Positions 8,350 through 43,525 of a stretch of 64,000 nucleotides of DNA are shown piece by piece (positions within the stretch are counted from its first letter, which is position 1; every line of letters begins with the position of its first letter). The notes under the pieces were generated by a model. It did no database searches. It saw only the letters and a list, made by a program, of their open reading frames with translations, and was not told the origin of the DNA. The DNA is from Thermoanaerobaculaceae bacterium (GTDB lineage Bacteria; Acidobacteriota; Thermoanaerobaculia; Thermoanaerobaculales; Thermoanaerobaculaceae), in NCBI GenBank assembly GCA_035542455.1, contig DATKLI010000066.1:2870-66869 (forward strand), given 5' to 3'. A program made the translations under genes and the position numbers.

Positions 8350-8910
8350 ATGCAGTTGGTCGCCACCGAGATGCGCGCCGGCAACATCATCGTCTACAAC
8401 GGCCAGCTCCACCGGGTGTTGCAGGTCATCCACGTCACGCCCGGCAACTGGCGCGGGATGGTGCAGTGCAAGTTGCGGAACCTCAAGACCGGCAACCAGC
8501 TCGAGCACAGGTTCCGGTCCGAGGACAGGGTCGAGAAGGCGAGCCTCGACACCCACGAGATGCAGTACCTGTACTCCGATCCGTCGGGCAACCACTTCAT
8601 GAACACCGAGACGTTCGAGCAGCTCTCGCTCACCGACGAGGTGCTCGGCGACTCGAAGGGGTTCCTGCTGCCCGACACCGTGATCACGGTCGACTTCTAC
8701 GACAGCCAGCCGGTCGGCCTCGAGCTGCCGAACACGGTGGTGCTCCAGGTCGTCGAGACGGACCCCCCGCTCAAGGGCGCGACGGCCGCCGGCGGCTCGA
8801 AGCCCGCCAAGCTGGAGACGGGCGTCACGGTCGCGGTGCCGCAGTTCATCGACACCGGCACCAAGATCGTCGTCGACACCCGCACCGGCGAGTACGTCTC
8901 CCGCGCGTAG
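8350..8910 (+). CDS. efp: Elongation factor P
   Basis: ATG at 8350 inside ORF 7828..8910. MQLVATEMRAGNIIVYNGQLHRVL...KPAKLETG...VPQFI is a classic EF-P sequence. Confidence 0.95.
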   Translation: MQLVATEMRAGNIIVYNGQLHRVLQVIHVTPGNWRGMVQCKLRNLKTGNQLEHRFRSEDRVEKASLDTHEMQYLYSDPSGNHFMNTETFEQLSLTDEVLGDSKGFLLPDTVITVDFYDSQPVGLELPNTVVLQVVETDPPLKGATAAGGSKPAKLETGVTVAVPQFIDTGTKIVVDTRTGEYVSRA

Positions 8911-9033
8911 CGACCGGGCTCCGGGTTCCCACAAGAACGAAGCCAGTAGCACAGCGTGTGCGCCCGCGCCGCTGCTACGCCCGACGTCCGGGGTCCGCAA
9001 GAACGAAACGAGCAGTGCCGTGGCGAATCGCGT

Positions 9034-9162
9034 GCAGCCGCGTCGCCGAGAGTGGGCCAGATGCGAGGCGGACGAGGCGGGAGGAGCGGAGCGTAGCCGG
9101 AGGCTACGTGAGCATCCGATCCGCCGAGTCCAACGCCGCAGATGGTCCGCTATCGGCGGCGC
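9034..9162 (+). repeat. 129-nt structured interspersed element, copy 1
   Basis: Differs from the copies at 21522-21650 and 30723-30851 at 8-9 positions by manual count. Internal stems are CGGATGC/GCATCCG and GCGTAGCC-GGA-GGCTACGT. It ends 6 nt from the stop of the BamA-like gene. Confidence 0.85.
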
Positions 9163-9168
9163 AAGCAA

Positions 9169-10725
9169 TCAGAACAGCGAGGTGCCGGAAATGAGGAACA
9201 CTGCCTTCCCCCCCCGGTCCGGCACCGCCACCTCGACCCGGACCACCCTCAGCAGCGCCGCGCGGGTGGATTCGATCAGCAGGCCCACGCCGGCGTCGGA
9301 CCTGATCCCGTCGGTCGAAGGCCCGACGCGCGGAGCCCACGTCTTCCCGGCGTCCGCAAACACGACGCCGCCGATGATCCCGAGGTGGAGCACCTCGCCG
9401 GTGAGCACGTGCCGCCACTCCAGGTTCGCGACCGCCCGCGAGGTTCCGTCGAATGTGTCGGGATCCCACCCGCGCAGCCCCGTGTCGGCGCCGAGCGTGA
9501 GCTGCTGATCCCCGTCCAGGTTGTGCCCGACGTCCACCGAGATCCGCGCGCGCCACCCCACGCTCCCGGTCCGCGCCGTCCCGGCGTCGAGGTGCGTCAC
9601 CTGGTTGACGAGCGCCCCGCCCTCGAGCCGTCCGTCGCTGGCGACGTTTATCCACGAGTACTGAGCACCCGAGAGGAACCCGAGGTTCAGCACGCCGTCG
9701 AGCTTGACCCTCGAGCGATCGCCGCCGAACGCCGGGAGAGACACGCCGGCCGTGACGGTCCAGTTGGGACCGAGGGGGACGTCCTCCTGCCGCTGCCACG
9801 CGCGGAACCCGCTCACCACGAGCCAGCGGTCGACCTGGTGGTCCCACCCGACCAGGACCCCCTGCATGTCGTGCCCCGCGGGATCGGGGTACGGTTGGCC
9901 GCCAACGGTGCTCCAGTTCAGGAACTCCACCTGGTCCTTGAACACGCCGAGCGTGAGCCGGTCGGTCGTGCCCGAGTCCCACGGCATCCGCACCCCTCCC
10001 CACAACTGGAACGCGTCGACGTCCGCCTTGCCGCGCACCGCCTCGTGGCCGTTGACGTACAGGTACTCGGTCTGGTCGTCGCGTTGCAGGGAGAAGCCGC
10101 CGGCGCGCGGCGTCGCGAGGGCGAAAAACGGGTACACGAGGGATACCTCGTCGCCCCTGCCGTCCGAGAGCCTCTTGTGTTGGACCTCGAGCTGCCAGCG
10201 GCTCCCGAGGAACAGAGAGTCCTTGTACCGCAACGTCGTCGTGGTGCGCTCGGTGGACTGGTCGTACTCGACGAGCAGCTGCTTCCCCCATCCGAGGAAG
10301 TTGTCCTCCGCCAGGCTGCCGCCGACGTGGTGCCGGTTCCCCGCGATGCCCAGGCTCAACCCCACCAGGGTCGTCCACTGGTCGTGCGTCCTCACCGTGA
10401 CCTCGGCGCCACCCGGGGCGGGCTTGGCCGTGATCGTGACGGGGCTCAGGAAGCCGGTGCCCCGCAGGATCCGCTCGCTCTCGGCGAGCTGCGCGGGGTC
10501 GAGCCTGTCGCCTTCCTTGAAGAGCAGGAGCGAGCGGATGTACCGCTCGCGCGTGAGGACGTGGAGGGCGTTCGCCCAGCGGTACGGCCAGGAGGACGTG
10601 GCACGGTCGGCGGTGTCGAAGATGTCGTCGCGGACCACTGTGATCGCCACGATCGGCGTACCCGGCGGCACGCCGGTCGTGTCGGGCGCTGCCGCCGCGG
10701 CGATCAGGAGCAGTGCGGCGATCAT
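9169..10725 (-). CDS. BamA/TamA-family outer-membrane beta-barrel protein (single POTRA-like N-terminus)
   Basis: ORF 9169..10776. The likely start is the internal ATG at 10725, giving signal peptide MIAALLLIAAAAAP. It has alternating beta-strand patterning and a C-terminal aromatic ending (...FLISGTSLF). Confidence 0.75.
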   Translation of the reverse strand: MIAALLLIAAAAAPDTTGVPPGTPIVAITVVRDDIFDTADRATSSWPYRWANALHVLTRERYIRSLLLFKEGDRLDPAQLAESERILRGTGFLSPVTITAKPAPGGAEVTVRTHDQWTTLVGLSLGIAGNRHHVGGSLAEDNFLGWGKQLLVEYDQSTERTTTTLRYKDSLFLGSRWQLEVQHKRLSDGRGDEVSLVYPFFALATPRAGGFSLQRDDQTEYLYVNGHEAVRGKADVDAFQLWGGVRMPWDSGTTDRLTLGVFKDQVEFLNWSTVGGQPYPDPAGHDMQGVLVGWDHQVDRWLVVSGFRAWQRQEDVPLGPNWTVTAGVSLPAFGGDRSRVKLDGVLNLGFLSGAQYSWINVASDGRLEGGALVNQVTHLDAGTARTGSVGWRARISVDVGHNLDGDQQLTLGADTGLRGWDPDTFDGTSRAVANLEWRHVLTGEVLHLGIIGGVVFADAGKTWAPRVGPSTDGIRSDAGVGLLIESTRAALLRVVRVEVAVPDRGGKAVFLISGTSLF

Positions 10726-10804
10726 TCGCACCGATTCTACGTTGCCGGGTCCTCCCTGCGTTGCGACACGGCTCACCCCGAGCCGGCGGCGTGGCCGCCG
10801 GCCG

Positions 10805-13084
10805 CTACCGCGCGGGAGGGACTTCCCCCCGCCCGCCCGCCAGCGACCACCCGGTCCGGAGCCCGACGACGAACCAACCGAGCGCGAGCACGCCGACCGC
10901 GAACACCGTGTCGCCGACGACCCGCAGCCACCGGAAGAAGTGCACGGCCGGCGTCTGCGTGAACTCGGCGGAGCGCGCGTACCACATCCCGTGGGTCACG
11001 CTCGCCCACGTCTGGAGCAGTCCGACGGGGAGCAGGCTCAGCACGCACATGAGCGCGAGGCCCGCATTGATCGCCCAGAAGGAGAAGGCCAGAACGCGGG
11101 TCTTCCACGCCTCTCGCGCCGCGAGCCCCTTGATGCAGAACAGCATCAGGCCGATCCCGAGCATCCCGTACACGCCGAACAGCGCCGCGTGCCCGTGCAG
11201 CGGGGTCGTGTTGAGCCCCTGCATGTAGTAGAGCGCAATCGGAGGGTTGATGAGGAACCCGAAGATCCCAGCGCCCACGAGGTTCCAGAACGCGACCGCG
11301 ACGAAGAAGTAGATCGGCCACCGGTATCCCGCGACCCACGGCCGCGCGCGCGCGAGCGTGAGGTTGCCGTACGCCTCGAACCCGATCAGCACGAGCGGCA
11401 CGACCTCGAGCGCCGAGAACGAGGCGCCCAGCGCGAGCACCGAGACCGGCGTCCCCGTGAAGTAGAGGTGGTGGAACGTCCCGATGATCCCGCCGGCGAG
11501 GAAGATCGTCGTCGAGAACAGCACCGCCGCGGTCGCCGACCCCACCCGCAGCAGCCCCATCCTGGTGAACAGGAACGCGATGACCACGGTCGCGAACACC
11601 TCGAAGAACCCCTCGACCCAGAGGTGCACGACCCACCACCGCCAGTACTCGGCGACCGCGAGGTTGGTCTGCCGCCCCCACATCAGTCCCGCTCCGTAGA
11701 ACAGCGCGATCGCCACCGTGGAGACGAAGAACAGGCCGAGCAGCGAGCGGCTCTCGCCGGGGCGGCGTAGCGCAGGCGCCAGCGCCCGCCCCATCAGCGC
11801 GAGCCAGATCAGGAGGCCGACGAACAGGAAGATCTGCCAGAACCGTCCGAGGTCCACGTACTCGTACCCCTGGTGCCCGAACCAGAAGTTGGCGGCGAGG
11901 CCGAGCCTCTGCATCACGCCGAGCCACTGCCCCACCATCGAGCCGACGACGATCACCAGCAGGCAGAGGTACAGCACGTTGACGAGCCCCCGCTGTCCGC
12001 GCGGCTCGTGCCCGGACACCGCCAGCGCCATGTACAGGCCCGTTGCGAGCCACGCCGTCGCGATCCAGAAGATCCCGAGCTGCAGGTGCCACGTCCGCGT
12101 GACCGCGTACGGCAGCCACCGCGCGATCGGTACGCCGTAGAACCCGCCGCCCTCGACGCCGTAGTGCGCGGTGATCGCGCCGAGGACGATCTGCACGACC
12201 AGCAGTGCAGCGGCCGTCCAGAAGTACTTGAGGGTCGCCCTCATCGACGGCGTCGGCGCGGCCCCCAGGAGCGGGTCGGTGTCGGGGAAGGGAGCGTCGC
12301 CCTCCTGGTGCCGGCGCTGGACCGCGAACGTCCACGCCAGCGCCCCGATCCCCGCGATCAGGAGGATGACGCTCGCGCCCGTCCAGAGGATCAGCGACGC
12401 CGACGGCCGGTTGCCGACGAGGTTCTCAGGAGGCCAGTTGTTGGTGTACGTCACGGCGCCGCCGGGCCGCTCGGTGGTGCAGGCCCAGGCGGCCCAGAAG
12501 AAGAACCCGTTCAGCTTGCGGAGGCGCTCCGGGTCCTTGATCGCGTCGGCGGGAAGGGCGTAGGCGTTGCGCAGCCCCGCCAGCGCGGGGTCGTGCCCGA
12601 ACAGCGCGGTGTAGTGGGCCGCAACGGCCGCGATCGCGGCCGCCCGGTCGGCCGAGACCGCGAGGTCGCCGGTCGAGCGGTCGTAGGTGTTCGCCCGCTC
12701 CTCCCGAGCGAGGCGTGCCCGCAGCATCGCCTGCGCCTCGCCGTCGAGCTCCGAGTACGCCTTGCCGTACGCCCCGCGCGCCCAGTGGTCGAGCAGGAAC
12801 GTCGCCTCGCGGTGCAGCCAGTCGGCGGACCAGTCGGGCGCGACGTACGCACCGTGCCCCCACACCGTCCCGACCTCCTGCCCACCCATCGACTGCCAGA
12901 CGTTCTGGCCGTCCTTGATGTCCTCCCCGGTCCACAGGACGGAGCCGTCGGGAGTGACGACCCGCGCCGGAACCGGCGGCGCCTCGCGGTAGATCTCGCG
13001 CCCGACGGACCCCAGCACGGCGAACGAGCCGACGACGACGACGGTCAGCGCGATCCACAACCCCCGGTTCGACCTCTCAGCCAT
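10805..13084 (-). CDS. norB: Quinol-dependent nitric-oxide reductase (qNOR), large subunit with N-terminal extension
   Basis: 759-aa ORF. The heme-copper oxidase core has HLWVEGFFE, GTFHHLY and HGHAALFG histidine ligands. A roughly 280-aa N-terminal extension is typical of qNOR. Confidence 0.9.
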   Translation of the reverse strand: MAERSNRGLWIALTVVVVGSFAVLGSVGREIYREAPPVPARVVTPDGSVLWTGEDIKDGQNVWQSMGGQEVGTVWGHGAYVAPDWSADWLHREATFLLDHWARGAYGKAYSELDGEAQAMLRARLAREERANTYDRSTGDLAVSADRAAAIAAVAAHYTALFGHDPALAGLRNAYALPADAIKDPERLRKLNGFFFWAAWACTTERPGGAVTYTNNWPPENLVGNRPSASLILWTGASVILLIAGIGALAWTFAVQRRHQEGDAPFPDTDPLLGAAPTPSMRATLKYFWTAAALLVVQIVLGAITAHYGVEGGGFYGVPIARWLPYAVTRTWHLQLGIFWIATAWLATGLYMALAVSGHEPRGQRGLVNVLYLCLLVIVVGSMVGQWLGVMQRLGLAANFWFGHQGYEYVDLGRFWQIFLFVGLLIWLALMGRALAPALRRPGESRSLLGLFFVSTVAIALFYGAGLMWGRQTNLAVAEYWRWWVVHLWVEGFFEVFATVVIAFLFTRMGLLRVGSATAAVLFSTTIFLAGGIIGTFHHLYFTGTPVSVLALGASFSALEVVPLVLIGFEAYGNLTLARARPWVAGYRWPIYFFVAVAFWNLVGAGIFGFLINPPIALYYMQGLNTTPLHGHAALFGVYGMLGIGLMLFCIKGLAAREAWKTRVLAFSFWAINAGLALMCVLSLLPVGLLQTWASVTHGMWYARSAEFTQTPAVHFFRWLRVVGDTVFAVGVLALGWFVVGLRTGWSLAGGRGEVPPAR

Positions 13085-14474
13085 GCGTCCCCCCCTCGAC
13101 GGCCACGGATCGCCGCCGCGCCAGCATCGCGCGCGCCAGGCGTGCGCCCCAGACCGCCAGACCGGCCACCTCGAGAACCCCGCTCGCGCCGGCGAGCGGG
13201 AACGCCGCCGCCGTGAAGTCGGTCGCGACCTGCATCGTCACCCTCAGGGCGCACCCGGTGGTCACCAGCGCGAACGGGAGCCGCAGGCGGCCGACGTCGG
13301 GCGCCCACGGCGCAGCGTGCGCCGACACCACCCTCGCTGCCACGCCCATGATCGTCAGCGAGATGAAGCCGACCGTGATCGCGTGCCGCATCGCTCCGTA
13401 CCAGGCGTGCGAGAAGTGCGTCCCGACGACCGCGAAGTACACGGGCGCCAGGACCAGCATCGCGAGGGCGATCACCAGCCACACCTGAGCCGCGCGCACG
13501 AACTTGAGCGAGCGATCGGGGCGCTCGACCCGCACCCACAGGCGCTCGTTGGCCGCGAACGCGACGGCGCAGGCCGCGAGCACGAGCGCGGCAACCCCGG
13601 ACACCGCGAGCCACAGGTGCCGCCCGCTGCCCATCCCGACCGCGAACGCCGCCGTCTCGAGCGCGACCGCGAGCTGGAGCGGCAGCCACAGCCGCCGCGC
13701 GCGCCCGGCGTCGGGGACGGGGGTGCCGAACCATGCCGGGAACTGCCGCATCGACACCCCGAAGATCATCATCATCGCGAGCCCATGGATCTGCAGATCG
13801 CGCAGCGGGAACTGCCACACCTCGACCTGACGGACCACATCGGCGGCCGTCGCGGCGCCGACCATCCGTGCGACGTGGAACACGTCCACGGCGCCCGCGG
13901 CGACGAACCACCCCACGGCCGCCGCGATGTAGCGGTCCGACACCGTAGGGCGCGCGCCGGAGCCGCTCCGTGTGGCGAGCAGCACCGCGGCGAACGCCGC
14001 CACGGCGGCGAGCTGCGCGGCCGCTCCGGCGACCGCCGTCGGCGCGAACCCCGCGATCTCGTGCAACGGCTCGCCGAGCGCGCGCAGGACGATCCCCGCG
14101 GCCATCAGGAGCCACGACGCGAGCGCCGCCCCCGGCCACCGCAGGCGTACCCGCCAGAACCGCGGGAACGCCGTGTACGCGAACCCCATCACGAACATCC
14201 CAACCCAGCCGTAGATCTGTGCCTGGGCGTGCGCGTCGATCTCGAAGATCGAGACCGAGGTGAGGGAACGATGGGCGGCGATGCGGAGGAGCACGATCGC
14301 ACCCCACGTCGCTCCGGCGGAGAGCGTCGCCGCGATCCCGGTCAGGAAGAAGCGCGGGAACGCGTCCGGATCGGGCGGAACGGCCGGCAACGCCGCCCCC
14401 GGAGCGCGGTGGGGAGCTCCCGCGGCGGCACCACCGCCGACGGCTGCAGCGCGGCGCGCCACGGCGTCAGACAC
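13077..14474 (-). CDS. nnrS: NnrS-family heme/copper membrane protein
   Basis: The hydrophobic C-terminal 465 codons of ORF 13077..14675 look real. GTG at 14474 overlaps the hemerythrin stop (GTGTCTGA). Its own stop overlaps the norB start (ATGGCTGA). Confidence 0.75.
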   Translation of the reverse strand: MSDAVARRAAAVGGGAAAGAPHRAPGAALPAVPPDPDAFPRFFLTGIAATLSAGATWGAIVLLRIAAHRSLTSVSIFEIDAHAQAQIYGWVGMFVMGFAYTAFPRFWRVRLRWPGAALASWLLMAAGIVLRALGEPLHEIAGFAPTAVAGAAAQLAAVAAFAAVLLATRSGSGARPTVSDRYIAAAVGWFVAAGAVDVFHVARMVGAATAADVVRQVEVWQFPLRDLQIHGLAMMMIFGVSMRQFPAWFGTPVPDAGRARRLWLPLQLAVALETAAFAVGMGSGRHLWLAVSGVAALVLAACAVAFAANERLWVRVERPDRSLKFVRAAQVWLVIALAMLVLAPVYFAVVGTHFSHAWYGAMRHAITVGFISLTIMGVAARVVSAHAAPWAPDVGRLRLPFALVTTGCALRVTMQVATDFTAAAFPLAGASGVLEVAGLAVWGARLARAMLARRRSVAVEGGTHG

Positions 14475-19017: not shown

Positions 19018-19067
19018 GCCCGTCCGCACGCTCGCGGGTTCGAGCGTCCGGACGCCGTCTACACGCC

Positions 19068-19153
19068 GGAAGAGGGTAGAGGGTAGCAGGAAGAGGGAGA
19101 GCTGCGACAAAGCTGAAGCCGCGGCCTTCGGGCTCCCCCCTCGCTCCTGCCGC
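19068..19153. repeat. GA-rich/CT-rich element (family member 3, degenerate)
   Basis: ggaagagggtagagggtagcaggaagagggagagc shares GGTAGAGGG/GGAAGAGGG words with members 1 and 4. It is followed by gctcccccctcgctcctgccgcc, and pairing is weak. Confidence 0.5.
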
Positions 19154-19334
19154 CTGGCGGGCCCGCATCGAGGTGCCTGCGGCGCGGCGCCGCTGGACGC
19201 GCGGCTCCCCAGGGACGATCTTGAGTACGGGGGCCTGCTCCCGCCGCGTCCGTGCGCGGACTCGAACGCCACACCAGGACCCTCACCGAGAGGAGCGTGG
19301 CACGAGCGGGCGAACGCCTCCCGGGGAGGACACC

Positions 19335-19754
19335 ATGAGAACCCTCACCATCGCGCTCTCGGCGGCCATCGTCATCGCCGGCTGCGCGCATAACGCCCCG
19401 TCCGGCGTGGGGGCGCGCGCCGAGGCCGCGAGCGACGAAGCCGGCCTCGCCGAGGCGCTCGCGGGTCGGACCGCCGGGCCGCCGCAGGAGTGCGTGGCGA
19501 TGGCGGATCTCGGCGCCCAGCGGTCGTACGGGAGAGGCGTGATCGTGTTCGACGGCCGCACCGAGGACGTCGTCTACGTGAACCGCCCGCCGGTCGCCTG
19601 TCCCGGGCTCGACGCCGGACGGGCGCTCAAGAGCGCGACGACCGTGACGCGGCTGTGCCGCGGCGACATCGTCACCGTGTTCGACCCGGTGGGCGGCGTC
19701 GGCGTCGGCAGCTGCAGCCTCGGCCAGTTCGTCCCCTACCGCCGCACCCGGTAG
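19335..19754 (+). CDS. Hypothetical lipoprotein
   Basis: ATG at 19335 in ORF 19173..19754. MRTLTIALSAAIVIAGCAHN is a lipobox signal peptide. Four further Cys; no recognisable domain. Confidence 0.6.
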   Translation: MRTLTIALSAAIVIAGCAHNAPSGVGARAEAASDEAGLAEALAGRTAGPPQECVAMADLGAQRSYGRGVIVFDGRTEDVVYVNRPPVACPGLDAGRALKSATTVTRLCRGDIVTVFDPVGGVGVGSCSLGQFVPYRRTR

Positions 19755-19809
19755 CGGGCGCGATCGGGAGGCCTCGACCCACGAGGAGAGCACCGCCGCA
19801 CGGCGCATC

Positions 19810-21225
19810 TCAGCGGCGGACCCGGCGCGCGACGCGGCGGCCGTCGACCGGGGAGAACCCCACGCCCGTGGCGCGATCGTACTCGCCGCCCCTGGCCACG
19901 ACGCCGACGTCGAACGCGCCCGCCGGCACCTCCGCGAACGTGAACCTGGGAGAGTCCGTGGACGCGACCCGCCCTCCGGGGCCCCACACCTCGTACCGGG
20001 TCGCGTCCGCCTGCGCCTCCCACTCGAGAGCCAGTGGGGCCGCCGGCGAGACCCTGACGGGCACCCAGTCGGGGTTGCGTGCGCCGTACTGGAGCCTTCT
20101 TCCCCTGTTCCAGCAGTTGCCCGCGCCGTACGTCGGGTCGAACGCGCGAAAGTCGTACCGTCCGGGGAGGAACGCCCCCTCACCGAGCAGCACCCTCGCG
20201 ACCCGGCCGGCCGGGATGAAGCGCGGGATCGCGCTCGAGACGCCGGGGTCGTCGCACGGCCCGATCTCGCCGCGCGCGTCGAGACAGCCGTTGACGTAGG
20301 AGCGCCCGTCGGGGGTCGCGGTCAGCTGCAGCCAGCCGAACAGCGACGCGATCGTGGCGAGCACGGCCGGGTCGCGGTAGAACTCCGGCAGGGGCGTGCC
20401 CGCCAGCCAGTAGGCGTAGAAGGCGTTGGCCAGCTCGATCAGGAGGACCCCGCCGTACACGGCGCTCTGGCCGCCGTGGTTGTTCATCATGACGTACGCG
20501 TTGCCGTCGATCGGCGACGTCTGCACCGTCAGGGCGTACGTCCCCGCCTCGGTCGAGAACGCGAGCCTGAAGTACTCCTCCTCGAGCAGGCGCAGCGCCC
20601 CGTCCCCGACGCGGGCGACGACGTTGGGGAACAGCTGGCGCACCGTCGCGACGGCCTTCAGCATCGACCCGAAGTCCTCGGAGCACGAGTTCCAGGGGTC
20701 GATGCCGCACGACGTGTCGACCCGGAACGTCCGCTCGTCGACGGCGTCCTCCATGATGCGGTCGATCTGCTCCGCGAGCGCGCCGGGGAGCTGTGACCGG
20801 AGCTCGAACGCCCGCACGCCCAGGTCGTACACGACGAACTTGGAGAGCCACCCGTTCCCCCACGTGCCGTCGCCGGCGGAGAAGAGGTAGTACCTGTCGG
20901 CGACGTACTGGAGCGCCGCGACGTCGGCGTCCGCCAGGAGGTCGATGTAGTAGTTGGCCTCCGCCGCGCCGGAACCCGTGCGCTGGAGCCAACTCATGTC
21001 GCCGGGCTCACCCGCCGTGGCGGCCGACACCACCGCCCCGTCCCGGCCCGGGGATGCGGCGCCTGCCGCCGGCGCCGCCAGGCCCGCCGCGCACGGCGCG
21101 AGGAGCACCGCGAACGCGACCGTCCACGCCCGCCACACCTCGGCGGCCAGCGCAGATACCCGGCGCCGCACCTCCGATCCACGATCGGCCCACCTCGTGC
21201 GAGTGTCCGCGGTCCCGACTCTCAT
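19810..21225 (-). CDS. Hypothetical secreted protein, unknown fold, C-terminal beta-sandwich-like tail
   Basis: ATG at 21225 with GGGGAGGTG 4 nt upstream, inside ORF 19810..21306. TM/signal segment VWRAWTVAFAVLLAPCAAG. Well-balanced composition, and I recognise no motif. Confidence 0.65.
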   Translation of the reverse strand: MRVGTADTRTRWADRGSEVRRRVSALAAEVWRAWTVAFAVLLAPCAAGLAAPAAGAASPGRDGAVVSAATAGEPGDMSWLQRTGSGAAEANYYIDLLADADVAALQYVADRYYLFSAGDGTWGNGWLSKFVVYDLGVRAFELRSQLPGALAEQIDRIMEDAVDERTFRVDTSCGIDPWNSCSEDFGSMLKAVATVRQLFPNVVARVGDGALRLLEEEYFRLAFSTEAGTYALTVQTSPIDGNAYVMMNNHGGQSAVYGGVLLIELANAFYAYWLAGTPLPEFYRDPAVLATIASLFGWLQLTATPDGRSYVNGCLDARGEIGPCDDPGVSSAIPRFIPAGRVARVLLGEGAFLPGRYDFRAFDPTYGAGNCWNRGRRLQYGARNPDWVPVRVSPAAPLALEWEAQADATRYEVWGPGGRVASTDSPRFTFAEVPAGAFDVGVVARGGEYDRATGVGFSPVDGRRVARRVRR

Positions 21226-21521
21226 GGGCACCTCCCCGCGCTCCTCGCTCTCCACGCTGGTGCCCGGGCCGACCATGCTCGTGACGGCGCCGCCACGCCG
21301 GAGCAACGGTTGGCCAACGCGGGGGCAACGGATGAATCAGGGCTTCATGACACCGGGGGCGCAACGAACTGGGCTGCCCGAGAGTCTTAGGGCACGTTGA
21401 CGGCACGGAAGCGTCAAAGGGCAAACGCTCAACGGAGGACGCGGCGAGGCAAGTGGTGGAGACGAGACGAGCCGTGGCGAAGCGTGCGCGGCCGCCGCTG
21501 CAGGGTCGACGCTACGCGCGT

Positions 21522-21650
21522 GTAGCCGCGCCGCCCAGAGTGGGCCGGATGCAAGGCGGACGAGGCGGCAGGAGCGGAGCGTAGCCGGAGGCTACGTGAG
21601 CATCCGATCCGACGAGTCCAACGCCGCAGACGGTCCGCTATCGGCGGCGC
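21522..21650 (+). repeat. 129-nt structured interspersed element, copy 2
   Basis: Same length and orientation as copy 1, with 8 mismatches by manual count. It ends exactly at the stop codon (21651) of the ABC permease gene. Confidence 0.85.
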
Positions 21651-22883
21651 CTATCCGCGCAATGCTTCCACGGGAGTCATGCGGGAGGCCGTCATCGCCG
21701 GAAACACCCCCGCAAACAACCCCGTCGCGACCGCGAACGCGATCCCGAGCACGAGGCCGAGCGGCGCGAGCGCGAGCCCCGCGGGGAACGCCGACGACGC
21801 GGCGGCGGTGATCCCGGCGCCGACGAGACAGCCGATCAGCGCGCCCAGCGTCGAGAGCGCGGTAGATTCGACCATGAACTGCAGCAGGATGGCGCGGTCG
21901 GAGGCGCCGATCGCCTTTCGCAGGCCGATCTCGTACAGGCGCTCGGCGAGCGAGATCTTGAGCACCGAGTAGATCCCGATCCCGCCGACGAGCAGCGAGA
22001 TCCCGGCGAGGGAGGCGAGGATGATCGTCCAGTTGCGCAGCTCCTTGGCGACCTCCTTCTCCGCCCGCAGGATCTCGTCGGCGATGTTCTCGACCTCGAA
22101 GTCCGAGATCCCGTGGTGGGCGCGCCGCACCAGCCGCTCGACCTCCTTCTTGACCAGGTTGAGCCTGTCCTTTGAGGTCGTCTTGACGGTGAGGAGAGCG
22201 ATGCGCTCCCCGCCCTGCAGGTACGCGCGGAACGACGAGAGAGGGATCAGCACGCCGTCCATCTCGCGTCGCGTCCACCCCGAGTCCGCCATCTTGTTGC
22301 CGAGCTCGGTTTCGACGCCCACCACGCGGAACAGCGCGTCGCCGATCCGCACGTTCCGACCGAGCGGGCTCTCCGTCCCGAACAGCCGCTCCGCCAGCAG
22401 CTTCCCCAACACCGCGACCTTGCGCGACTCGATCTGGTCGCCCTCGTCGAGCCATCGGCCCGCGCTCACGTTGCGGTCGTGCACCTGCCCGTACGAGGGG
22501 GTGATCCCGTACACCCGGACGCGGCGCTCGACGCCCTGCGCCGAGACCACGAGCTGCGAGATGCGCACCGCCGCCACCGCCTGGATCGCCTCACCCTCCT
22601 CGCGCACGACGCCCGCGTCGGGCGCCTCGAGCCCGCGCGAGTACCCCTGCTTGAGGCGCTCGATCGGGTCCTCGGGCTCGCGCGCCGAGACGAACATCAC
22701 GCCGTCGAACCCGAGGCTCGCGATCCCGTCCCACACCATCACCTTCACGCCCTCGATGATCGTGATCATCACGACCACCGCGGCGGTGCCCAGGATGACG
22801 CCCACGAGTGTGAGCCCCGAGCGGAGCTTGTGCGCCCAGATCTCCGCGAGCGTCGTCCGGACGGCCTCCCAGAACGCCATCAC
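21651..22883 (-). CDS. ABC transporter permease, MacB/FtsX type
   Basis: 410-aa ORF. N-terminal TM (KLRSGLTLVGVILGTAAVV), a large periplasmic domain, and a C-terminal FtsX 3-TM bundle. Confidence 0.85.
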   Translation of the reverse strand: MMAFWEAVRTTLAEIWAHKLRSGLTLVGVILGTAAVVVMITIIEGVKVMVWDGIASLGFDGVMFVSAREPEDPIERLKQGYSRGLEAPDAGVVREEGEAIQAVAAVRISQLVVSAQGVERRVRVYGITPSYGQVHDRNVSAGRWLDEGDQIESRKVAVLGKLLAERLFGTESPLGRNVRIGDALFRVVGVETELGNKMADSGWTRREMDGVLIPLSSFRAYLQGGERIALLTVKTTSKDRLNLVKKEVERLVRRAHHGISDFEVENIADEILRAEKEVAKELRNWTIILASLAGISLLVGGIGIYSVLKISLAERLYEIGLRKAIGASDRAILLQFMVESTALSTLGALIGCLVGAGITAAASSAFPAGLALAPLGLVLGIAFAVATGLFAGVFPAMTASRMTPVEALRG

Positions 22884-27949: not shown

Positions 27950-28090
27950 TGGCTGGAGGGAAGAGAGAAGAAGGTAGAGGGAAGACAAGCCACGCCGACG
28001 TCTGGAGGCGTGCCCTCCGCCTTCCGTCTTCCACCTTCCGCCTTTCGTCTTCCCTCTCCCGTCTCCCCTCTTCCCGCTCCTGTCCCTCGC
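27950..28090. repeat. GA-rich/CT-rich imperfect palindrome (family member 4)
   Basis: Purine tract ggagggaagagagaagaaggtagagggaagac, central cacgcc-N10-ggcgtg stem, then a roughly 75-nt pyrimidine tract (ccttccgtcttccaccttccgcctttcgtcttccctctccc...). Confidence 0.7.
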
Positions 28091-28912: not shown

Positions 28913-30466
28913 TTGCGACGAGCCAGGGTTCTGTTGACCGTTGTCGCCGCGACGAGCGCAGCGTGGGCGGCGGCGGGGAGCGGGACGTGGACCTCGGCAG
29001 GACCGCCCGCGATCATACTGTCGCTCGCGGTGGACCCCTCGACGCCGGGCACCGTCTACGCCGGGAGCTCGGCCGCTGGCGCGTTCCGGAGCACCGACGG
29101 CGGCGCCAGCTGGGGCGGCTTCGGCCTCGGCTCCAACTCGGTTCTCGCGCTCGCGGTCGCGGCCACGACGCCCGCCACCGTCTACGCCGGGACCGCCGCC
29201 TCCGGCGTCCTGACCAACTCGGCCTCCGCACCGAACTGGACCTCCTCCGGTCTTCTCTACAACTCGGTCCAGGCCCTCGCCGCGCTCCCGGGGACGGCGG
29301 CAACGGTGTTCGCCGGCACCAACGTCAACGGGGTGATGAAGACGACGGACAGCGGCGTCACCTGGGTGAAGTCCGGCCTCGGCAACACCTCGGTTCTGGC
29401 GCTCGCGATCGACCCCGTCGACACCGCCACGATGTACGCCGCGACCGGCAGCGGCGTCTTCCGAAGCGGCGACCACGGCTCCAGCTGGGTCTCGGCCAAC
29501 GTCGGCCTCGCGGGCGTCACGGTTCGAGCGCTTGCCGTCGACCCCGCCGGCGCCGGAACGGTGTACGCGGCGAGCACGGCGGGGGTGTTCAAGACGGTTG
29601 ACGGCGGCTCGACCTGGAGCCCGGTGAGCTCCGGCCTGACGACCCTCTCGGTCACGTCGCTGGCGGTCACGACGTGGTCCGCGCCGAAGGTGTACGCCGG
29701 AACCGCAGGCGGAGGCGTGTCCGTGAGCACGAACGGCGGAGGGAGCTGGAGCGCGCTCCTCGGCGGACTCGCGAACCTCTCCGTCAACGCCCTCGCCGTC
29801 GCGCCGACGGTCCCTCCCACCGTGTACGCCGGCACCGCCGGCGGGGTCTTCGCGTACACCGAGCCGGTGGTTTGCAGGGCGCCGTCCGGTCTCGTCAACA
29901 ACACGGCGGTCGACGCCGACCCGTGCGCGAAGAAGGGACTCTCGATCGCCTGGACGGCCCCCGCGGACTGGGGAGACAGCGGCGTCGGCACCCGCACCTT
30001 CGACGTGCTGCGCAACGACATCCCGGTGGCGACCGGCCTCGCCGAGACGGCCCACGCCTACACCGACACGACCGCCGTCGCGTACGTCGAGTACGCGTAC
30101 GCGGTGCGCGCGGACAACGGGTGCGGGCTGTCGGCGACGACGGTCGGGGCGATCGCCTCCGACACGACGGCGCGGCCGGCGATCCAGGCCCAGCCCAGCA
30201 GCGGCACGATCTGGGCGGGCCACTCCACGCTGCTCTCCGTGACCGCATCGGGCGCGACCGGCTACCAGTGGTACACGGGCACGAGCGGCGACACGTCGCA
30301 CCCGGTCGTCGGCGCGACGGCGTTCCGGTACTCCACCCCGAAGCTGTACTCCAACACCTCGTACTGGGTCCAGGTCACCAACGCCTGCGGCAGCACCGCG
30401 AGCGACACCGCTGCCATCACGCTGAAGTGGCACCGGCTCCGCCCCCACGTCGGCAGGGCGCAGTAG
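28913..30466 (+). CDS. Secreted Asp-box (BNR/sortilin-Ycf48-like) beta-propeller protein with C-terminal Fn3/Ig-like domains
   Basis: Signal peptide MRRARVLLTVVAATSAAWAAAG. Repeated S/T-x-D-G-G-x-x-W boxes (STDGGASW, TTDSGVTW, SGDHGSSW, TVDGGSTW, STNGGGSW). The tail carries Ig-like GYQWY. Confidence 0.75.
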   Translation: MRRARVLLTVVAATSAAWAAAGSGTWTSAGPPAIILSLAVDPSTPGTVYAGSSAAGAFRSTDGGASWGGFGLGSNSVLALAVAATTPATVYAGTAASGVLTNSASAPNWTSSGLLYNSVQALAALPGTAATVFAGTNVNGVMKTTDSGVTWVKSGLGNTSVLALAIDPVDTATMYAATGSGVFRSGDHGSSWVSANVGLAGVTVRALAVDPAGAGTVYAASTAGVFKTVDGGSTWSPVSSGLTTLSVTSLAVTTWSAPKVYAGTAGGGVSVSTNGGGSWSALLGGLANLSVNALAVAPTVPPTVYAGTAGGVFAYTEPVVCRAPSGLVNNTAVDADPCAKKGLSIAWTAPADWGDSGVGTRTFDVLRNDIPVATGLAETAHAYTDTTAVAYVEYAYAVRADNGCGLSATTVGAIASDTTARPAIQAQPSSGTIWAGHSTLLSVTASGATGYQWYTGTSGDTSHPVVGATAFRYSTPKLYSNTSYWVQVTNACGSTASDTAAITLKWHRLRPHVGRAQ

Positions 30467-30542
30467 GAAGACAGGGTCTCGACTTTCGACTTTCGACCGG
30501 AACGAAACAAGCAGCTCCGTTGCGTAGTGCGTGTAGTTGCGT

Positions 30543-30729
30543 CGCCGCGACAACTACTGCTCGTGGATCGTGGGTCGTGGATCGTGTGTCGTAGATGCGA
30601 GACTAGCAGGGCCGAGGCGAGTCGCGTGCAGCCGCGCCGCCGCGACAACTACTGCTCGTGGGTCGTGGATCGTTGGTCGTGGATCGTAGATACGAGACAA
30701 GCAGGGCCGACGCACGACGCGTGGAGCCG
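30543..30729 (+). repeat. Tandem duplication (units of 95 and 92 nt) of a variable-block plus conserved-junction module, directly upstream of element copy 3
   Basis: Units start at 30543 and 30638 with cgccgcgacaactactgctcgtgg. Both contain gtggatcgt/ggtcgtgg low-complexity repeats and end ...agcagggccga..gcgtg.agccgcgc. Confidence 0.8.
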
Positions 30730-30851
30730 CGCCGCCGAGAGTGGGCCGGATGCCAGGCGGACGAGGCGGGAGGGGCGGAGCGTAGCCGAAGGCTACGTGA
30801 GCATCCGATCCGCCGAGTCCAACGCCGCAGACGGTCCGCTATCGCCGACGC
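30723..30851 (+). repeat. 129-nt structured interspersed element, copy 3
   Basis: Same length and orientation, with 9 mismatches to copy 1 by manual count. It ends 14 nt from the ALDH stop codon. Confidence 0.85.
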
Positions 30852-30865
30852 CCAGACTGCAAGCG

Positions 30866-32287
30866 CTACATACTTGGCAGATACCAGCAGATGACCTTGG
30901 GCTCCGTCATCTCCTGCAGCGAGAACTTGATCCCCTCCCGCCCCAGCCCCGAGTTCTTGATCCCGCCGAACGGCATCGAGTCGAGGCGGTAGTCGGTCGA
31001 GTCGTTGACCATGATCCCGCCGGCGTCGAGGCCGAGCGCGAGCTTGAACGAGGTGTCCACGTCGCGGGTGAAGAGCGCGGCGTGCAGGCCGAACGGGAGC
31101 GAGTTCGCCTCGGCGAGCGCCTCCTCGATCGTCGCGACCGGGTACAGGTTGACGGTCGGCCCGAACACCTCGGAGTGGTGGATGGTGGCGGTCTTGGGGA
31201 CGTTCTCAAGCACGGTCGGCTGCATCAGGGCTCCCGTGCGCCCGCCGCCGATCAGCACCTTGGCGCCGGCCGACCTCGCCTCCGCGACCCAGCGCTCGAC
31301 GCGCTTCGCCTCGCCCTCGGCGATCATCGGCCCCATGTCGGTCTCTTCCTTCATCTTGTCGCCGATCTTGTACTTCGAGGTGAACTCCACCATCCCGTCC
31401 CGAAACGCGGCGTACACGTCGTTGTGGACGTAGATACGCTGAACGCCGATGCAGTTCTGCCCCGCCGCCCAGAACGCCCCCGACACGCACGTCTCTGCCG
31501 CCCAGCGGACGTCGGCGTCCTTCCAGACGACCACCGGCGAGTTGCTGCCGAGCTCCATCCCGATCTTCTTGATCCCGGCAAGCGTGGTGATGCGCTGCCC
31601 GGCCTCGAGCCCGCCGGTGAACGAGATCATGCGCACGCGGCCGCCCCTCACGAGCGGGTCGCCGATCTCGGCGCCGTGCCCCGTGATCGTCTGCAGAACG
31701 AGCGGGGGCAGCCCCGCCTCGACGAACGCCTCGGTGAGCTTGAGCGCCGAGAGCGGCGTCACGGTCGCCGGCTTGAGGATCACGGAGTTGCCGGCGGCGA
31801 CCGCCGGCCCCAGCTTGTGCGCGACCAGGTTCAACGGGTCGTTGAACGGCGTGATCGCGAGCACCACCCCGACCGGCACGCGCTGGTAGTAGCCGACGCG
31901 CTTCTCGCCCCCCGGGAACGAGTCGAACGGGATCGTCTCGCCCTGGATCCGCTTCGCCTCCTCAGCGGAGATCGTGAGCGTGTTGACGCAGCGCCGCGCC
32001 TCCTTGCGCGCCTCGCGGATCGTCTTCGAGCCCTCGCGCGCGATCGTCGTCGCGAACTCCTCGAGCCTGCCCTGCACGATCGCCGCAGTCCTGAAGAGCA
32101 CCTGGGCGCGCTCGTACACGGTCATCCGCCGGGCGACCTCGAACCCCTTCACCGCCGCGGCGAGCGCGGTCTCGACGTCGGCTGCGGTCGCGCGCGGCAC
32201 GGTGTCCACGAGCGAATTGTCGAACGGGTCGCGGACCTCGATCTTCTTGTCGCGGTCCACCCACGAACCGGCGAGCAGCATCTTCAT
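30866..32287 (-). CDS. NAD(P)-dependent aldehyde dehydrogenase family protein
   Basis: ATG at 32287 overlaps the hom stop (ATGA). Motifs ELGSNSP (catalytic Glu) and AAGQNCIGVQR (catalytic Cys). It is the C-terminal 473 codons of ORF 30866..33370. Confidence 0.9.
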   Translation of the reverse strand: MKMLLAGSWVDRDKKIEVRDPFDNSLVDTVPRATAADVETALAAAVKGFEVARRMTVYERAQVLFRTAAIVQGRLEEFATTIAREGSKTIREARKEARRCVNTLTISAEEAKRIQGETIPFDSFPGGEKRVGYYQRVPVGVVLAITPFNDPLNLVAHKLGPAVAAGNSVILKPATVTPLSALKLTEAFVEAGLPPLVLQTITGHGAEIGDPLVRGGRVRMISFTGGLEAGQRITTLAGIKKIGMELGSNSPVVVWKDADVRWAAETCVSGAFWAAGQNCIGVQRIYVHNDVYAAFRDGMVEFTSKYKIGDKMKEETDMGPMIAEGEAKRVERWVAEARSAGAKVLIGGGRTGALMQPTVLENVPKTATIHHSEVFGPTVNLYPVATIEEALAEANSLPFGLHAALFTRDVDTSFKLALGLDAGGIMVNDSTDYRLDSMPFGGIKNSGLGREGIKFSLQEMTEPKVICWYLPSM

Positions 32288-40830: not shown

Positions 40831-43491
<2,661 letters not shown>

Positions 43492-43525
43492 TGAGGCGCT
43501 GCCCTCTTGGCTGAGATTCTACCCC
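43492..43525 (-). promoter_or_regulatory. Conserved kinase leader block (GGTAGAATCTCA...AGAGGG...CCTCA-ATG), copy 1
   Basis: The minus-strand reading GGGGTAGAATCTCAGCCAAGAGGGCAGCGCCTCA-ATG aligns with the blocks upstream of the other two kinases. TAGAAT is -10-like and AGAGGG is SD-like. Confidence 0.45.

Follow-up and report, generated by a model that had tools for sequence, protein, structure and literature searches.

A 123-nt hairpin repeat that abuts stop codons in soil and peat Acidobacteria

Results

Three copies of a hairpin unit lie behind minus-strand genes

A stretch of 64,000 nt from a Thermoanaerobaculaceae bacterium (assembly GCA_035542455.1, contig DATKLI010000066.1, positions 2,870–66,869 of the forward strand; hereafter the window, GC content 70%) carries three copies of an interspersed, hairpin-forming sequence, each next to the stop codon of a minus-strand gene. 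We call the 123-nt hairpin unit H and its reverse complement H′; loci sampled from scans of genomes and metagenomes carry the prefix L. The three copies all lie in the same orientation on the plus strand, as an earlier note on this DNA had described, and are 115–116/123 identical pairwise (93–94%), in agreement with the 8–9 differences over 129 nt counted there. A 30-mer from the H core occurs three times in the window, with 0 occurrences expected from shuffles, and a covariance model of H run on the window matched these three copies only. The distances of 6, 0, and 14 nt to the stops of the BamA-like, MacB-like, and aldehyde dehydrogenase genes were also correct as first given; the 129-nt boundaries were not. 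A repeat search extended the similarity 5′ of the hairpin to a 160-nt unit (9003–9162, 21491–21650, and 30692–30851), and the 123-nt hairpin together with its 5′ leader forms the natural unit, set amid a mosaic of other repeats. The features at the three sites are as follows.

9003–9039, plus strand: 5′ leader of copy 1 (repeat families; conservation across 93 copies), decamer GCGTGCAGCC at 9030–9039
9040–9162, plus strand: H copy 1, 123 nt (covariance-model match, 136.6 bits)
9169–9171, minus strand: TGA stop of an Omp85-family gene (9169–10776; Pfam Omp85), 6 nt from the 3′ end of H
21491–21527, plus strand: 5′ leader of copy 2 (repeat search), decamer GCGTGTAGCC at 21518–21527
21528–21650, plus strand: H copy 2 (covariance-model match, 132.2 bits; fold; orthologous copies in L012 and L025)
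21651–21653, minus strand: TAG stop of a MacB-like permease gene (21651–22883; Pfam MacB_PCD and FtsX), 0 nt from H
30692–30728, plus strand: 5′ leader of copy 3 (repeat search), decamer GCGTGGAGCC at 30719–30728
30729–30851, plus strand: H copy 3 (covariance-model match, 123.6 bits; fold)
30866–30868, minus strand: TAG stop of an aldehyde dehydrogenase gene (Pfam Aldedh, 1.9e-151), 14 nt from H

The leader-side neighbors are efp (plus strand) for copy 1, a minus-strand gene without assigned identity for copy 2, and a gene for a BNR/Ig_7 protein (plus strand) for copy 3.

H folds into a single rod with compensatory changes

Each window copy is predicted to fold as one long imperfect hairpin, or rod. 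The plus-strand RNA folds at −75 to −87 kcal/mol (z −5.1 to −8.2; −86.6 kcal/mol and z −8.2 for 9034–9162) and the minus-strand RNA, H′, at −62 to −66 kcal/mol (z −1.5 to −3.9); with DNA parameters the values are −41.7 kcal/mol (z −5.1) for the plus strand versus −31.5 kcal/mol (z −2.2) for the minus strand. The leader alone is unstructured (z +1.3). The separate arms of H fold no better than shuffled sequences (z −0.18 and +0.67), and a doublet of repetitive extragenic palindromic (REP) sequences was rejected because the arms do not fold alone. The stems proposed in the earlier note, namely an outer GCGCCGCC/GGCGGCGC stem, CGGATGC/GCATCCG, and an apical GCGTAGCC-GGA-GGCTACGT hairpin, all belong to this one nested rod. 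A GCGGAC/GTCCGC pseudoknot, also proposed there, was rejected because covariation favors a nested partner: GGAC covaries with the GTCC of GAGTCCAAC, and GGAC/GTCC alternates with GCAC/GTGC (C-G in 32 and G-C in 20 distinct sequences). Pairing between GTAGCC of the leader and the apical GGCTAC was likewise discarded, as the leader does not covary with variants of the apical stem.

Across 53 distinct sequences of the family described below, 98.0% of pair cells are standard, and double changes occur in 22 of the 43 pairs (202 cells). These values were reached by 0/500 shuffles, and slid controls gave no more than 8 pairs and 46% pairing. An independent MAFFT/RNAalifold analysis of 24 copies recovered the same rod with 13 compensated pairs, and even the most diverged copies (29–36 differences from the consensus) retain 39–43 of the 43 pairs. 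Covariation, which had been suggested as a check, thus strongly supports the description of H as a structured, interspersed, non-coding element in which substitutions preserve pairing and show no codon periodicity. A coding sequence was rejected on the same compensatory changes, on flanks that differ between copies, and on the sole reading frame, which runs into unrelated flank.

The pairs are not equally good on both strands. Three wobble pairs are near-fixed on the plus strand (U-G in 53/53, G-U in 46/53, and G-U in 49/53 sequences) and become A-C mismatches in H′ RNA, because of which 98.0% of cells are paired on the plus strand versus 91.5% on the minus strand. Sporadic changes show no such bias, with 16 G-U cells and 16 A-C cells. 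Moreover, the changes in diverged copies are not private; each helix has a few self-complementary versions, or alleles, that are combined differently among copies. From the equal numbers of sporadic cells and the shuffled helix alleles, we read foldability as probably selected at the level of the family, through source copies and inter-copy exchange, and not as one RNA strand at each locus. On the plus strand the internal loops are rich in purines, and their conservation is close to that of the stems, with 0.13 and 0.10 differences per column, respectively.

An independently transcribed plus-strand family, either small RNAs (sRNAs) or antisense RNAs that act in trans or on the convergent gene's 3′ end, would suit several of these features: the plus strand folds far better than shuffles (z down to −8.2), and its conserved internal loops are purine-rich and its wobbles are G-U pairs. 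The sporadic mutations, without bias toward plus-strand pairing, argue against it, as does the transcriptional context considered below.

The family is spread over one group of Acidobacteria

A scan of a genome collection with an apical pattern gave 28 loci in 11 assemblies, all of them metagenome-assembled genomes (MAGs) of Acidobacteriota and several named Thermoanaerobaculaceae, and a metagenome scan with a 5′-arm pattern gave 73 contigs with copies. The covariance model found 67 full copies in the sampled loci, 53 of them distinct, plus truncated and interrupted copies. Both scans were single-pass with patterns drawn from H itself, so divergent relatives are under-sampled. The pattern scans nevertheless found >90 copies beyond the window, and the case in which the earlier note would have seen a mere remnant, that of no further copies genome-wide and no covariation, did not hold. 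The idea that the three copies are a remnant of chance or of neutral duplication, or else short coding sequences, has in its favor the small copy number within the window; set against >90 copies in at least 11 MAGs and many metagenome contigs, strong covariation, unrelated flanks, and compensatory substitutions without codon periodicity, we regard this explanation as refuted to near certainty. At least 7 metagenome contigs end inside an H copy, as expected for a multi-copy repeat. Metagenome contigs that start or end within a copy include L041, L047, L054, L058, L068, L078, L087, and L089, which makes H a frequent assembly breakpoint.

Against Rfam (release 15), the whole window at gathering threshold returned tRNA-Thr only, and permissive scans of 8800–9250 and of L011:3650–4200 gave chance-level matches only, in line with the earlier statement that H is not a known RNA family. 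H was unmatched in 5,426 complete E. coli genomes (blastn, 11-base words), no similarity was found in plasmids, phages, or viral contigs, and literature searches found no description of H in Acidobacteria. The companion statement that H is not a known REP or MITE (miniature inverted-repeat transposable element) held for sequence, with no match to the families tested, and not for kind, since anatomy and behavior place H among the REP/REPIN, ERIC, and TRIT repeats compared below. This previously undescribed repeat family occurs across a single family of Acidobacteria from soil and peat.

H abuts stop codons with fixed polarity

H ends sharply on its 3′ side: the base that follows is C in 49/67 and A in 15/67 copies, and beyond it the flanks are unrelated. 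Genes in the sampled loci were called with a GC3-based open reading frame (ORF) filter made for this analysis. Under strict criteria, an opposite-strand ORF ends beside H in 40/63 unique copies, and 35 of these 40 have the stop 0–15 nt from H, with a median of 3 nt. A second, conservative test placed an opposite-strand stop 0–15 nt away in 39/67 copies, and reading the junctions by eye added approximately a dozen copies missed by the filter, including window copy 3, which brings the share to about three quarters. The abutment noted at first for three copies is therefore a property of the family and not a coincidence. Among the stops beside H, TAG makes up 59% compared with 34% in the background (p = 0.004); GTAG-REPs are likewise associated with TAG stops (PMC3733652). 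Convergent gene pairs without H often have spacers of 14–36 nt. Abutment as a mere by-product of tiny spacers was considered; it contributes but leaves the median of 3 nt and the fixed polarity unexplained. Approximately six independent sites have the opposite polarity, with the start or promoter of a co-directional gene 25–80 nt downstream of H. The gene on the leader side is usually 70–250 nt away; it is a plus-strand gene in 43 cases and a minus-strand gene in 29. In L023 (6263–6330) and L051, an opposite-strand ORF appears to run into H′ and to end within it, the L023 ORF doing so at the TAG in the apical hairpin; these insertions seem to have replaced the original gene end.

Because nothing separates H from the stop codon, H′ would be transcribed as the first element of the 3′ untranslated region (UTR) of the abutting gene. 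It is the only strong structure downstream of the three window genes, the remaining spacers around the copies being unstructured and having no promoter-like site on either strand. Two regulatory assignments were discarded. A canonical intrinsic terminator combines a GC-rich hairpin with a U-tract, and this combination is absent at the window copies; a sigma-54 −24/−12 motif seen by eye in the leader has spacing off by one and is missing from the leader variant of the window. For a plus-strand sRNA, read-through from the left-hand gene, which is on the plus strand at ~60% of sites, could make the required strand. However, there is no sigma-70-like promoter in or upstream of the leader and no terminator after H, the 3′ flank is unrelated between copies, and in tandem minus-strand contexts nothing would transcribe the plus strand. 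We therefore consider this explanation very unlikely.

The position of H also bears on a different explanation, namely that H′ is primarily a host 3′-end signal, comparable to TRIT, that is recognized by a dedicated factor (a termination, processing, or dsRNA-binding protein) and kept by selection at each locus. The narrow distribution of distances to the stop codon, as in TRIT (PMC3152330), the conserved loop nucleotides, and the standing of H′ as the only strong structure behind the three genes count in favor of such a signal. Against it, H is present at only ~3 of ~55 window genes, lacks a U-tract, has the opposite polarity upstream of gene starts at the approximately six sites above, carries three near-fixed positions that pair on the plus strand and mismatch in H′ RNA, and collects sporadic mutations without strand bias.

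Copies turn over between genomes and are struck by other elements

Comparison of related loci showed that copies are gained and lost at orthologous sites, exchange helix segments, and are themselves struck by other small elements. L025 and L012 are syntenic with the window at 70–86% nucleotide identity, with only 0.51–0.55 identity at four-fold degenerate sites, which are thus saturated. At the efp/Omp85 site, H is present in the window, in L025/L062, and, with a nested insert, in L055, and L012 has a bare 36-nt spacer. Window copy 2 is 96% identical to the non-orthologous copy L025a compared with 73% to its ortholog, L025b, and L007 and L010, with ~90% identical flanks, hold different H subfamilies at the same site. 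The flanks of L089 and L020 are 91.6% identical and read the same through the stop codon and one further base (..TAAG). In L089 only, H′ follows 2 nt after the stop, and then the reverse complements of the leader (L′) and of module B (B′; see below), an extra gene, and a second, inverted B-L-H, all of which L020 lacks; the junction shows no duplication on the gene side. Because the 5′ side of H is always leader, the mobile unit and its far boundary are undefined. The gene enclosed in L089 (1160–2657) and L080 (186–1622) encodes an ~310-aa secreted protein, has a lower GC content, lies between two inverted B-L-H, and is absent from L020. H′..gene..H arrangements were also considered as composite transposons; the enclosed genes encode a HycI-like protease, small membrane proteins, and the secreted protein, with no transposase.

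For a host 3′-end signal, retention of H at the MacB and Omp85 sites in several genomes is favorable; the tolerated empty site in L012, the similarity that ignores orthology, and the recombining helix alleles are not.

Two other small repeat families are inserted inside H, some of the insertions being polymorphic between close relatives. One of them, ~95–110 nt (..GGCGAG..CGGGGGGTCTAGAGCG..GGGACCCCCCGCC..), occurs at two different positions in H, in L003, L015 (2255–2360), L040 (2643–2750), L101, and L055 (1700–1815), and its polymorphism follows from L078 and L099, which hold an uninterrupted H at the same loci. The other is ~105 nt long, has terminal inverted repeats of ~19 bp (GGCCGGKSATCACACTTTG), and splits the 5′ arm of H in L004, L018, and L027, all from one MAG (SCRJ01); its identical position in three loci indicates that an H subfamily with this insert has been copied.

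The leader belongs to a mosaic of repeats

Directly 5′ of the stem lies a conserved decamer, GCGTGNAGCC, and ~25 nt more of the 5′ tail are conserved, as is a AGCAGGGCC motif ~20 nt upstream of the decamer. The decamer contains GTAG in 54/93 copies (58%) and GCAG or GGAG in most others, and CC (2 nt) separates this tetranucleotide from the stem. What lies further upstream varies by lineage; runs of GTGGTCC-type heptamers, module B, an optional module C, and leader L are found in many MAGs. Examples of the mosaic are L010:1289–1420, L011, L012:685–1010, L017, and L020, in which module B reads GAGCCGGCTGCGCCGGCCGCAGGCCGCGCGGCC..CCCTCGAAGACGA. On the sense strand of the abutting gene, module C resembles a terminator, with a hairpin and a T-rich tail that lie 56 nt beyond H′ (reverse complement at L010:1344–1368). 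This polarity with respect to transcription counts for the repeat reading given in the Discussion; the resulting order H′-L′-C′ would suit a 3′ UTR layout and is a further point for a host 3′-end signal. Modules B and C and the main L variant are missing from the window lineage, which carries 95-nt tandem units, small GTAG..CTAC hairpins, and a leader variant of its own.

8946–8978, plus strand: small GTAG..CTAC palindrome (GTAGCACAGCG..CGCTGCTAC), read from the sequence, between the efp stop (8908–8910) and the leader of copy 1
30503–30692, plus strand: two tandem 95-nt units (repeat search and sequence), between the BNR/Ig_7 stop (30464–30466) and copy 3

Each 95-nt unit consists of a leader-like part, GCGCCGCC, a short GTAG..CTAC hairpin, and CGTGGAT-type heptamers, and has no significant structure. 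The two are 78% identical to each other, resemble at their start the leader of H plus the initial 8 nt of its stem, and look like an H-less version of the leader-H unit. Purine-rich (GGAAGAGGGTAGAGGGTAG..) and pyrimidine-rich (CCCTCTCCCGTCTCC..) stretches also recur in spacers (window 19060–19160, 28024–28084, and 1386–1418; L002, L025, L030, and L087), and in L002 and L025 they oppose each other as a long inverted repeat; they may be another repeat family.

The foot of the hairpin brings in a third explanation, in which the folded plus strand is active as single-stranded DNA (ssDNA) and H serves as the hairpin that a recombinase or an HUH (RAYT/TIRYT-like) transposase recognizes, comparable to REP/REPIN or integron attC sites; H might then also move adjacent genes. 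Its conserved unpaired 5′ tail, G(T/C/G)AGCC, resembles the tag (GTAG) found in REPs, the junction is enriched in TAG, and all 43 pairs form only on the plus strand, by way of the fixed G-T wobbles, with the stronger DNA fold on that strand. Variable genes also lie beside H composites, namely the gene between the inverted B-L-H of L089/L080 and an extra window gene beside copy 2. Against these points stand arms that are not palindromic REPs, copies dispersed among housekeeping genes without cassette arrays, and H′..gene..H arrangements that enclose unrelated genes. The differences from attC described below and the transposase search described with the interpretation also weigh against it. On balance, we find recognition of H as ssDNA decidedly improbable.

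H resembles several known repeats without matching any of them

The closest behavioral parallel is TRIT of Mycobacterium ("Tuberculosis Rho-independent terminator"; Gardner et al., 2011), with 147 copies, conserved sequence and structure, and a very narrow position relative to stop codons, for which a factor that binds a dsRNA motif was proposed (PMC3152330). H, like TRIT, is a clade-restricted, multi-copy palindromic hairpin of a high-GC host at a narrow distance from stop codons, with no identified factor. TRIT is far shorter and in most cases begins within the coding sequence (~−8), whereas H is a 43-bp rod 0–15 nt after the stop; H also differs in its fixed polarity with a conserved 5′ leader and in its setting within a repeat mosaic. 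The clades are unrelated, and, by the published description of TRIT, their shared conservation, copy number, and narrow stop distance represent a resemblance of behavior and not membership by sequence.

ERIC/IRU is an ~127-bp enterobacterial MITE, an imperfect palindrome that is co-transcribed and affects mRNA stability (Delihas, 2011; PMC3184786). H shares with it a near-equal length (123 versus ~127), a single long hairpin, an intergenic position at gene 3′ ends, and conservation between species with varying locations. Wilson and Sharp (2006) reportedly described variants of ERIC with internal insertions as well. ERIC has TA flanks with target duplications and occurs in both orientations without stop-codon abutment, and H has no sequence similarity to it.

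GTAG-REPs, REPINs, and BIMEs have subfamilies with complementary stem changes, G-T pairs, termini that supply TAG stops, and convergent or unidirectional locations (PMC3733652; Bertels and Rainey, 2011, PMC3116915). RAYT or TIRYT enzymes go with REPs, and the RAYT-like TIRYT transposases include an acidobacterial group (Di Nocera, 2013; PMC3733652), which is a further point for recognition of H as ssDNA. These repeats and H alike are extragenic, mostly between convergent or unidirectional genes, have subfamilies defined by complementary stem changes, frequent G-T pairs, and TAG-stop termini, lie in a mosaic with other motifs (as BIMEs do), and persist at vertically inherited sites. The tetranucleotide near the stem foot of H is similar to the REP tag but reads GTAG in only 58% of copies. 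REPs are 20–40 nt with a stem of 5–13 bp, compared with 123 nt and 43 pairs in H, and a REPIN consists of two inverted REPs, each palindromic, whereas H has the long hairpin but its arms are not hairpins.

SPRITE, Correia, and other MITEs share with H a small size, no ORF, multiple copies, a long RNA hairpin, a bias to gene ends, and insertion polymorphism, and SPRITE is terminator-like (PMC3184786). The whole of H is an imperfect inverted repeat, so that it has the terminal inverted repeats of a MITE, and like a MITE it is present or absent at orthologous sites (L012 empty; L089 filled and L020 not). H differs in having no U-tract, no shown target-site duplication, and no cognate insertion sequence, and in being an inverted repeat throughout in place of terminal repeats around a core.

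Integron attC sites, for example the Vibrio VCRs of 123–126 bp, are imperfect palindromes that immediately follow stop codons and fold better on one of their strands. H is alike in size, in its position behind stops, and in the strand asymmetry of its fold. An attC identity was rejected because the polarity is inverted on both strands (5′ GTYRRRC .. GYCCRAC 3′ versus RYYYAAC .. GTTRRRY), because GTT is not conserved (AGTGGGC in the window copies where others have GTTGGGC), and because there are no cassette arrays and no integrase nearby, the copies lying 9–12 kb apart among housekeeping genes. Since H falls outside the strict definitions of REP, REP doublet, ERIC, terminator, and attC and has no shown target duplication or transposase, we file it as a new family among the interspersed extragenic palindromes.

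Discussion

We give roughly even chances to the reading that H is a lineage-specific interspersed extragenic palindromic repeat of the REP/REPIN, ERIC, and TRIT kind, one that is copied and homogenized as DNA and, on transcription, opens the 3′ UTR of the neighboring gene as its first structure. Copies would be made or overwritten as DNA, by a trans-acting enzyme or by gene conversion between copies, and the substrate is perhaps the folded plus strand, where all 43 pairs form, including the three fixed G-T wobbles. New copies would land, or survive, directly behind stop codons. Once transcribed, the H′ hairpin (~−62 to −66 kcal/mol, ~43 bp) could act as a 3′-end barrier that protects the mRNA or blocks read-through or convergent transcription, and a terminating ribosome would have to melt it in part.

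Several observations weigh against this reading. The strand that pairs perfectly, the plus strand, is not the strand certain to be transcribed. No terminator-like site was found around the three window copies on either strand, and H′ is followed by GGCUNCACGC and not by a U-tract. A target-site duplication of H was not demonstrable, with TAG..CTA at both feet in a fraction of copies only. A tblastn and motif scan for a Y1/RAYT transposase in 716 kb of sampled loci (the window and 101 loci) found none, a weak test on account of its query sequences; the absence of a Y1 transposase or recombinase from the sampled loci counts, as weakly, against recognition of H as ssDNA. Some MAG contigs of 640–840 kb gave a single strict-pattern match, so copy number may be low in some genomes. 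The MacB site keeps H in three diverged genomes (the window, L012, and L025). Finally, H is 95–96% identical between genomes with saturated synonymous sites, and its loops are approximately as conserved as its stems, which also fits a host function with a sequence-specific partner.

The very high sequence conservation favors a host 3′-end signal, the main rival, which we consider the less probable account, at something like half the weight of the repeat reading. A more specific proposal is that H is the recognition hairpin of a system specific to gene 3′ ends in Thermoanaerobaculaceae, either a factor-dependent signal for termination or 3′-end formation in a high-GC lineage without U-tract terminators or a strand-specific ssDNA insertion or recombination system aimed at the first nucleotides after the stop. 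We hold this to be unlikely; if true, proteins would contact the three fixed wobble pairs and the near-invariant loops.

The hosts are common, mostly uncultured Acidobacteria of peat, wetland, and soil whose intergenic DNA is packed with an undescribed mosaic of repeats, with H as its most conserved module. H breaks metagenome assemblies and creates spurious long ORFs in sequence of 70% GC, and it sharply marks both where genes end on their 3′ side and where strain-level rearrangement has occurred. With mycobacterial TRIT, there are now two independent cases in which a hairpin of conserved sequence is locked to stop codons in a high-GC lineage where canonical terminators are few, and the question of whether such bacteria use dedicated 3′-end signals becomes testable with existing metatranscriptomes from these habitats. 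H could also serve as a model for repeat populations that keep their structure through recombining compensatory alleles.

Other features of the window

Compared with the syntenic locus L025, the window has an extra block of ~3.7 kb (10790–14462) that includes a NorB-like nitric oxide reductase. A second extra block of ~2.5 kb (19034–21515), with a small lipoprotein-like gene and a gene for a 498-aa secreted protein without a Pfam match, adjoins the leader side of copy 2. Three paralogous gene segments (40831–43518, 45356–47779, and 53619–54331) lie 4.5 and 6.4 kb apart with 66–79% DNA identity and have homologous repeats in L034 and L101; they represent a tandemly expanded gene family. Two genes with many BNR/Asp-box-like repeats (..GVFKSTDGGTSW..), at 28913–30466 and 61750–63450, are the source of most direct-repeat families in the window.

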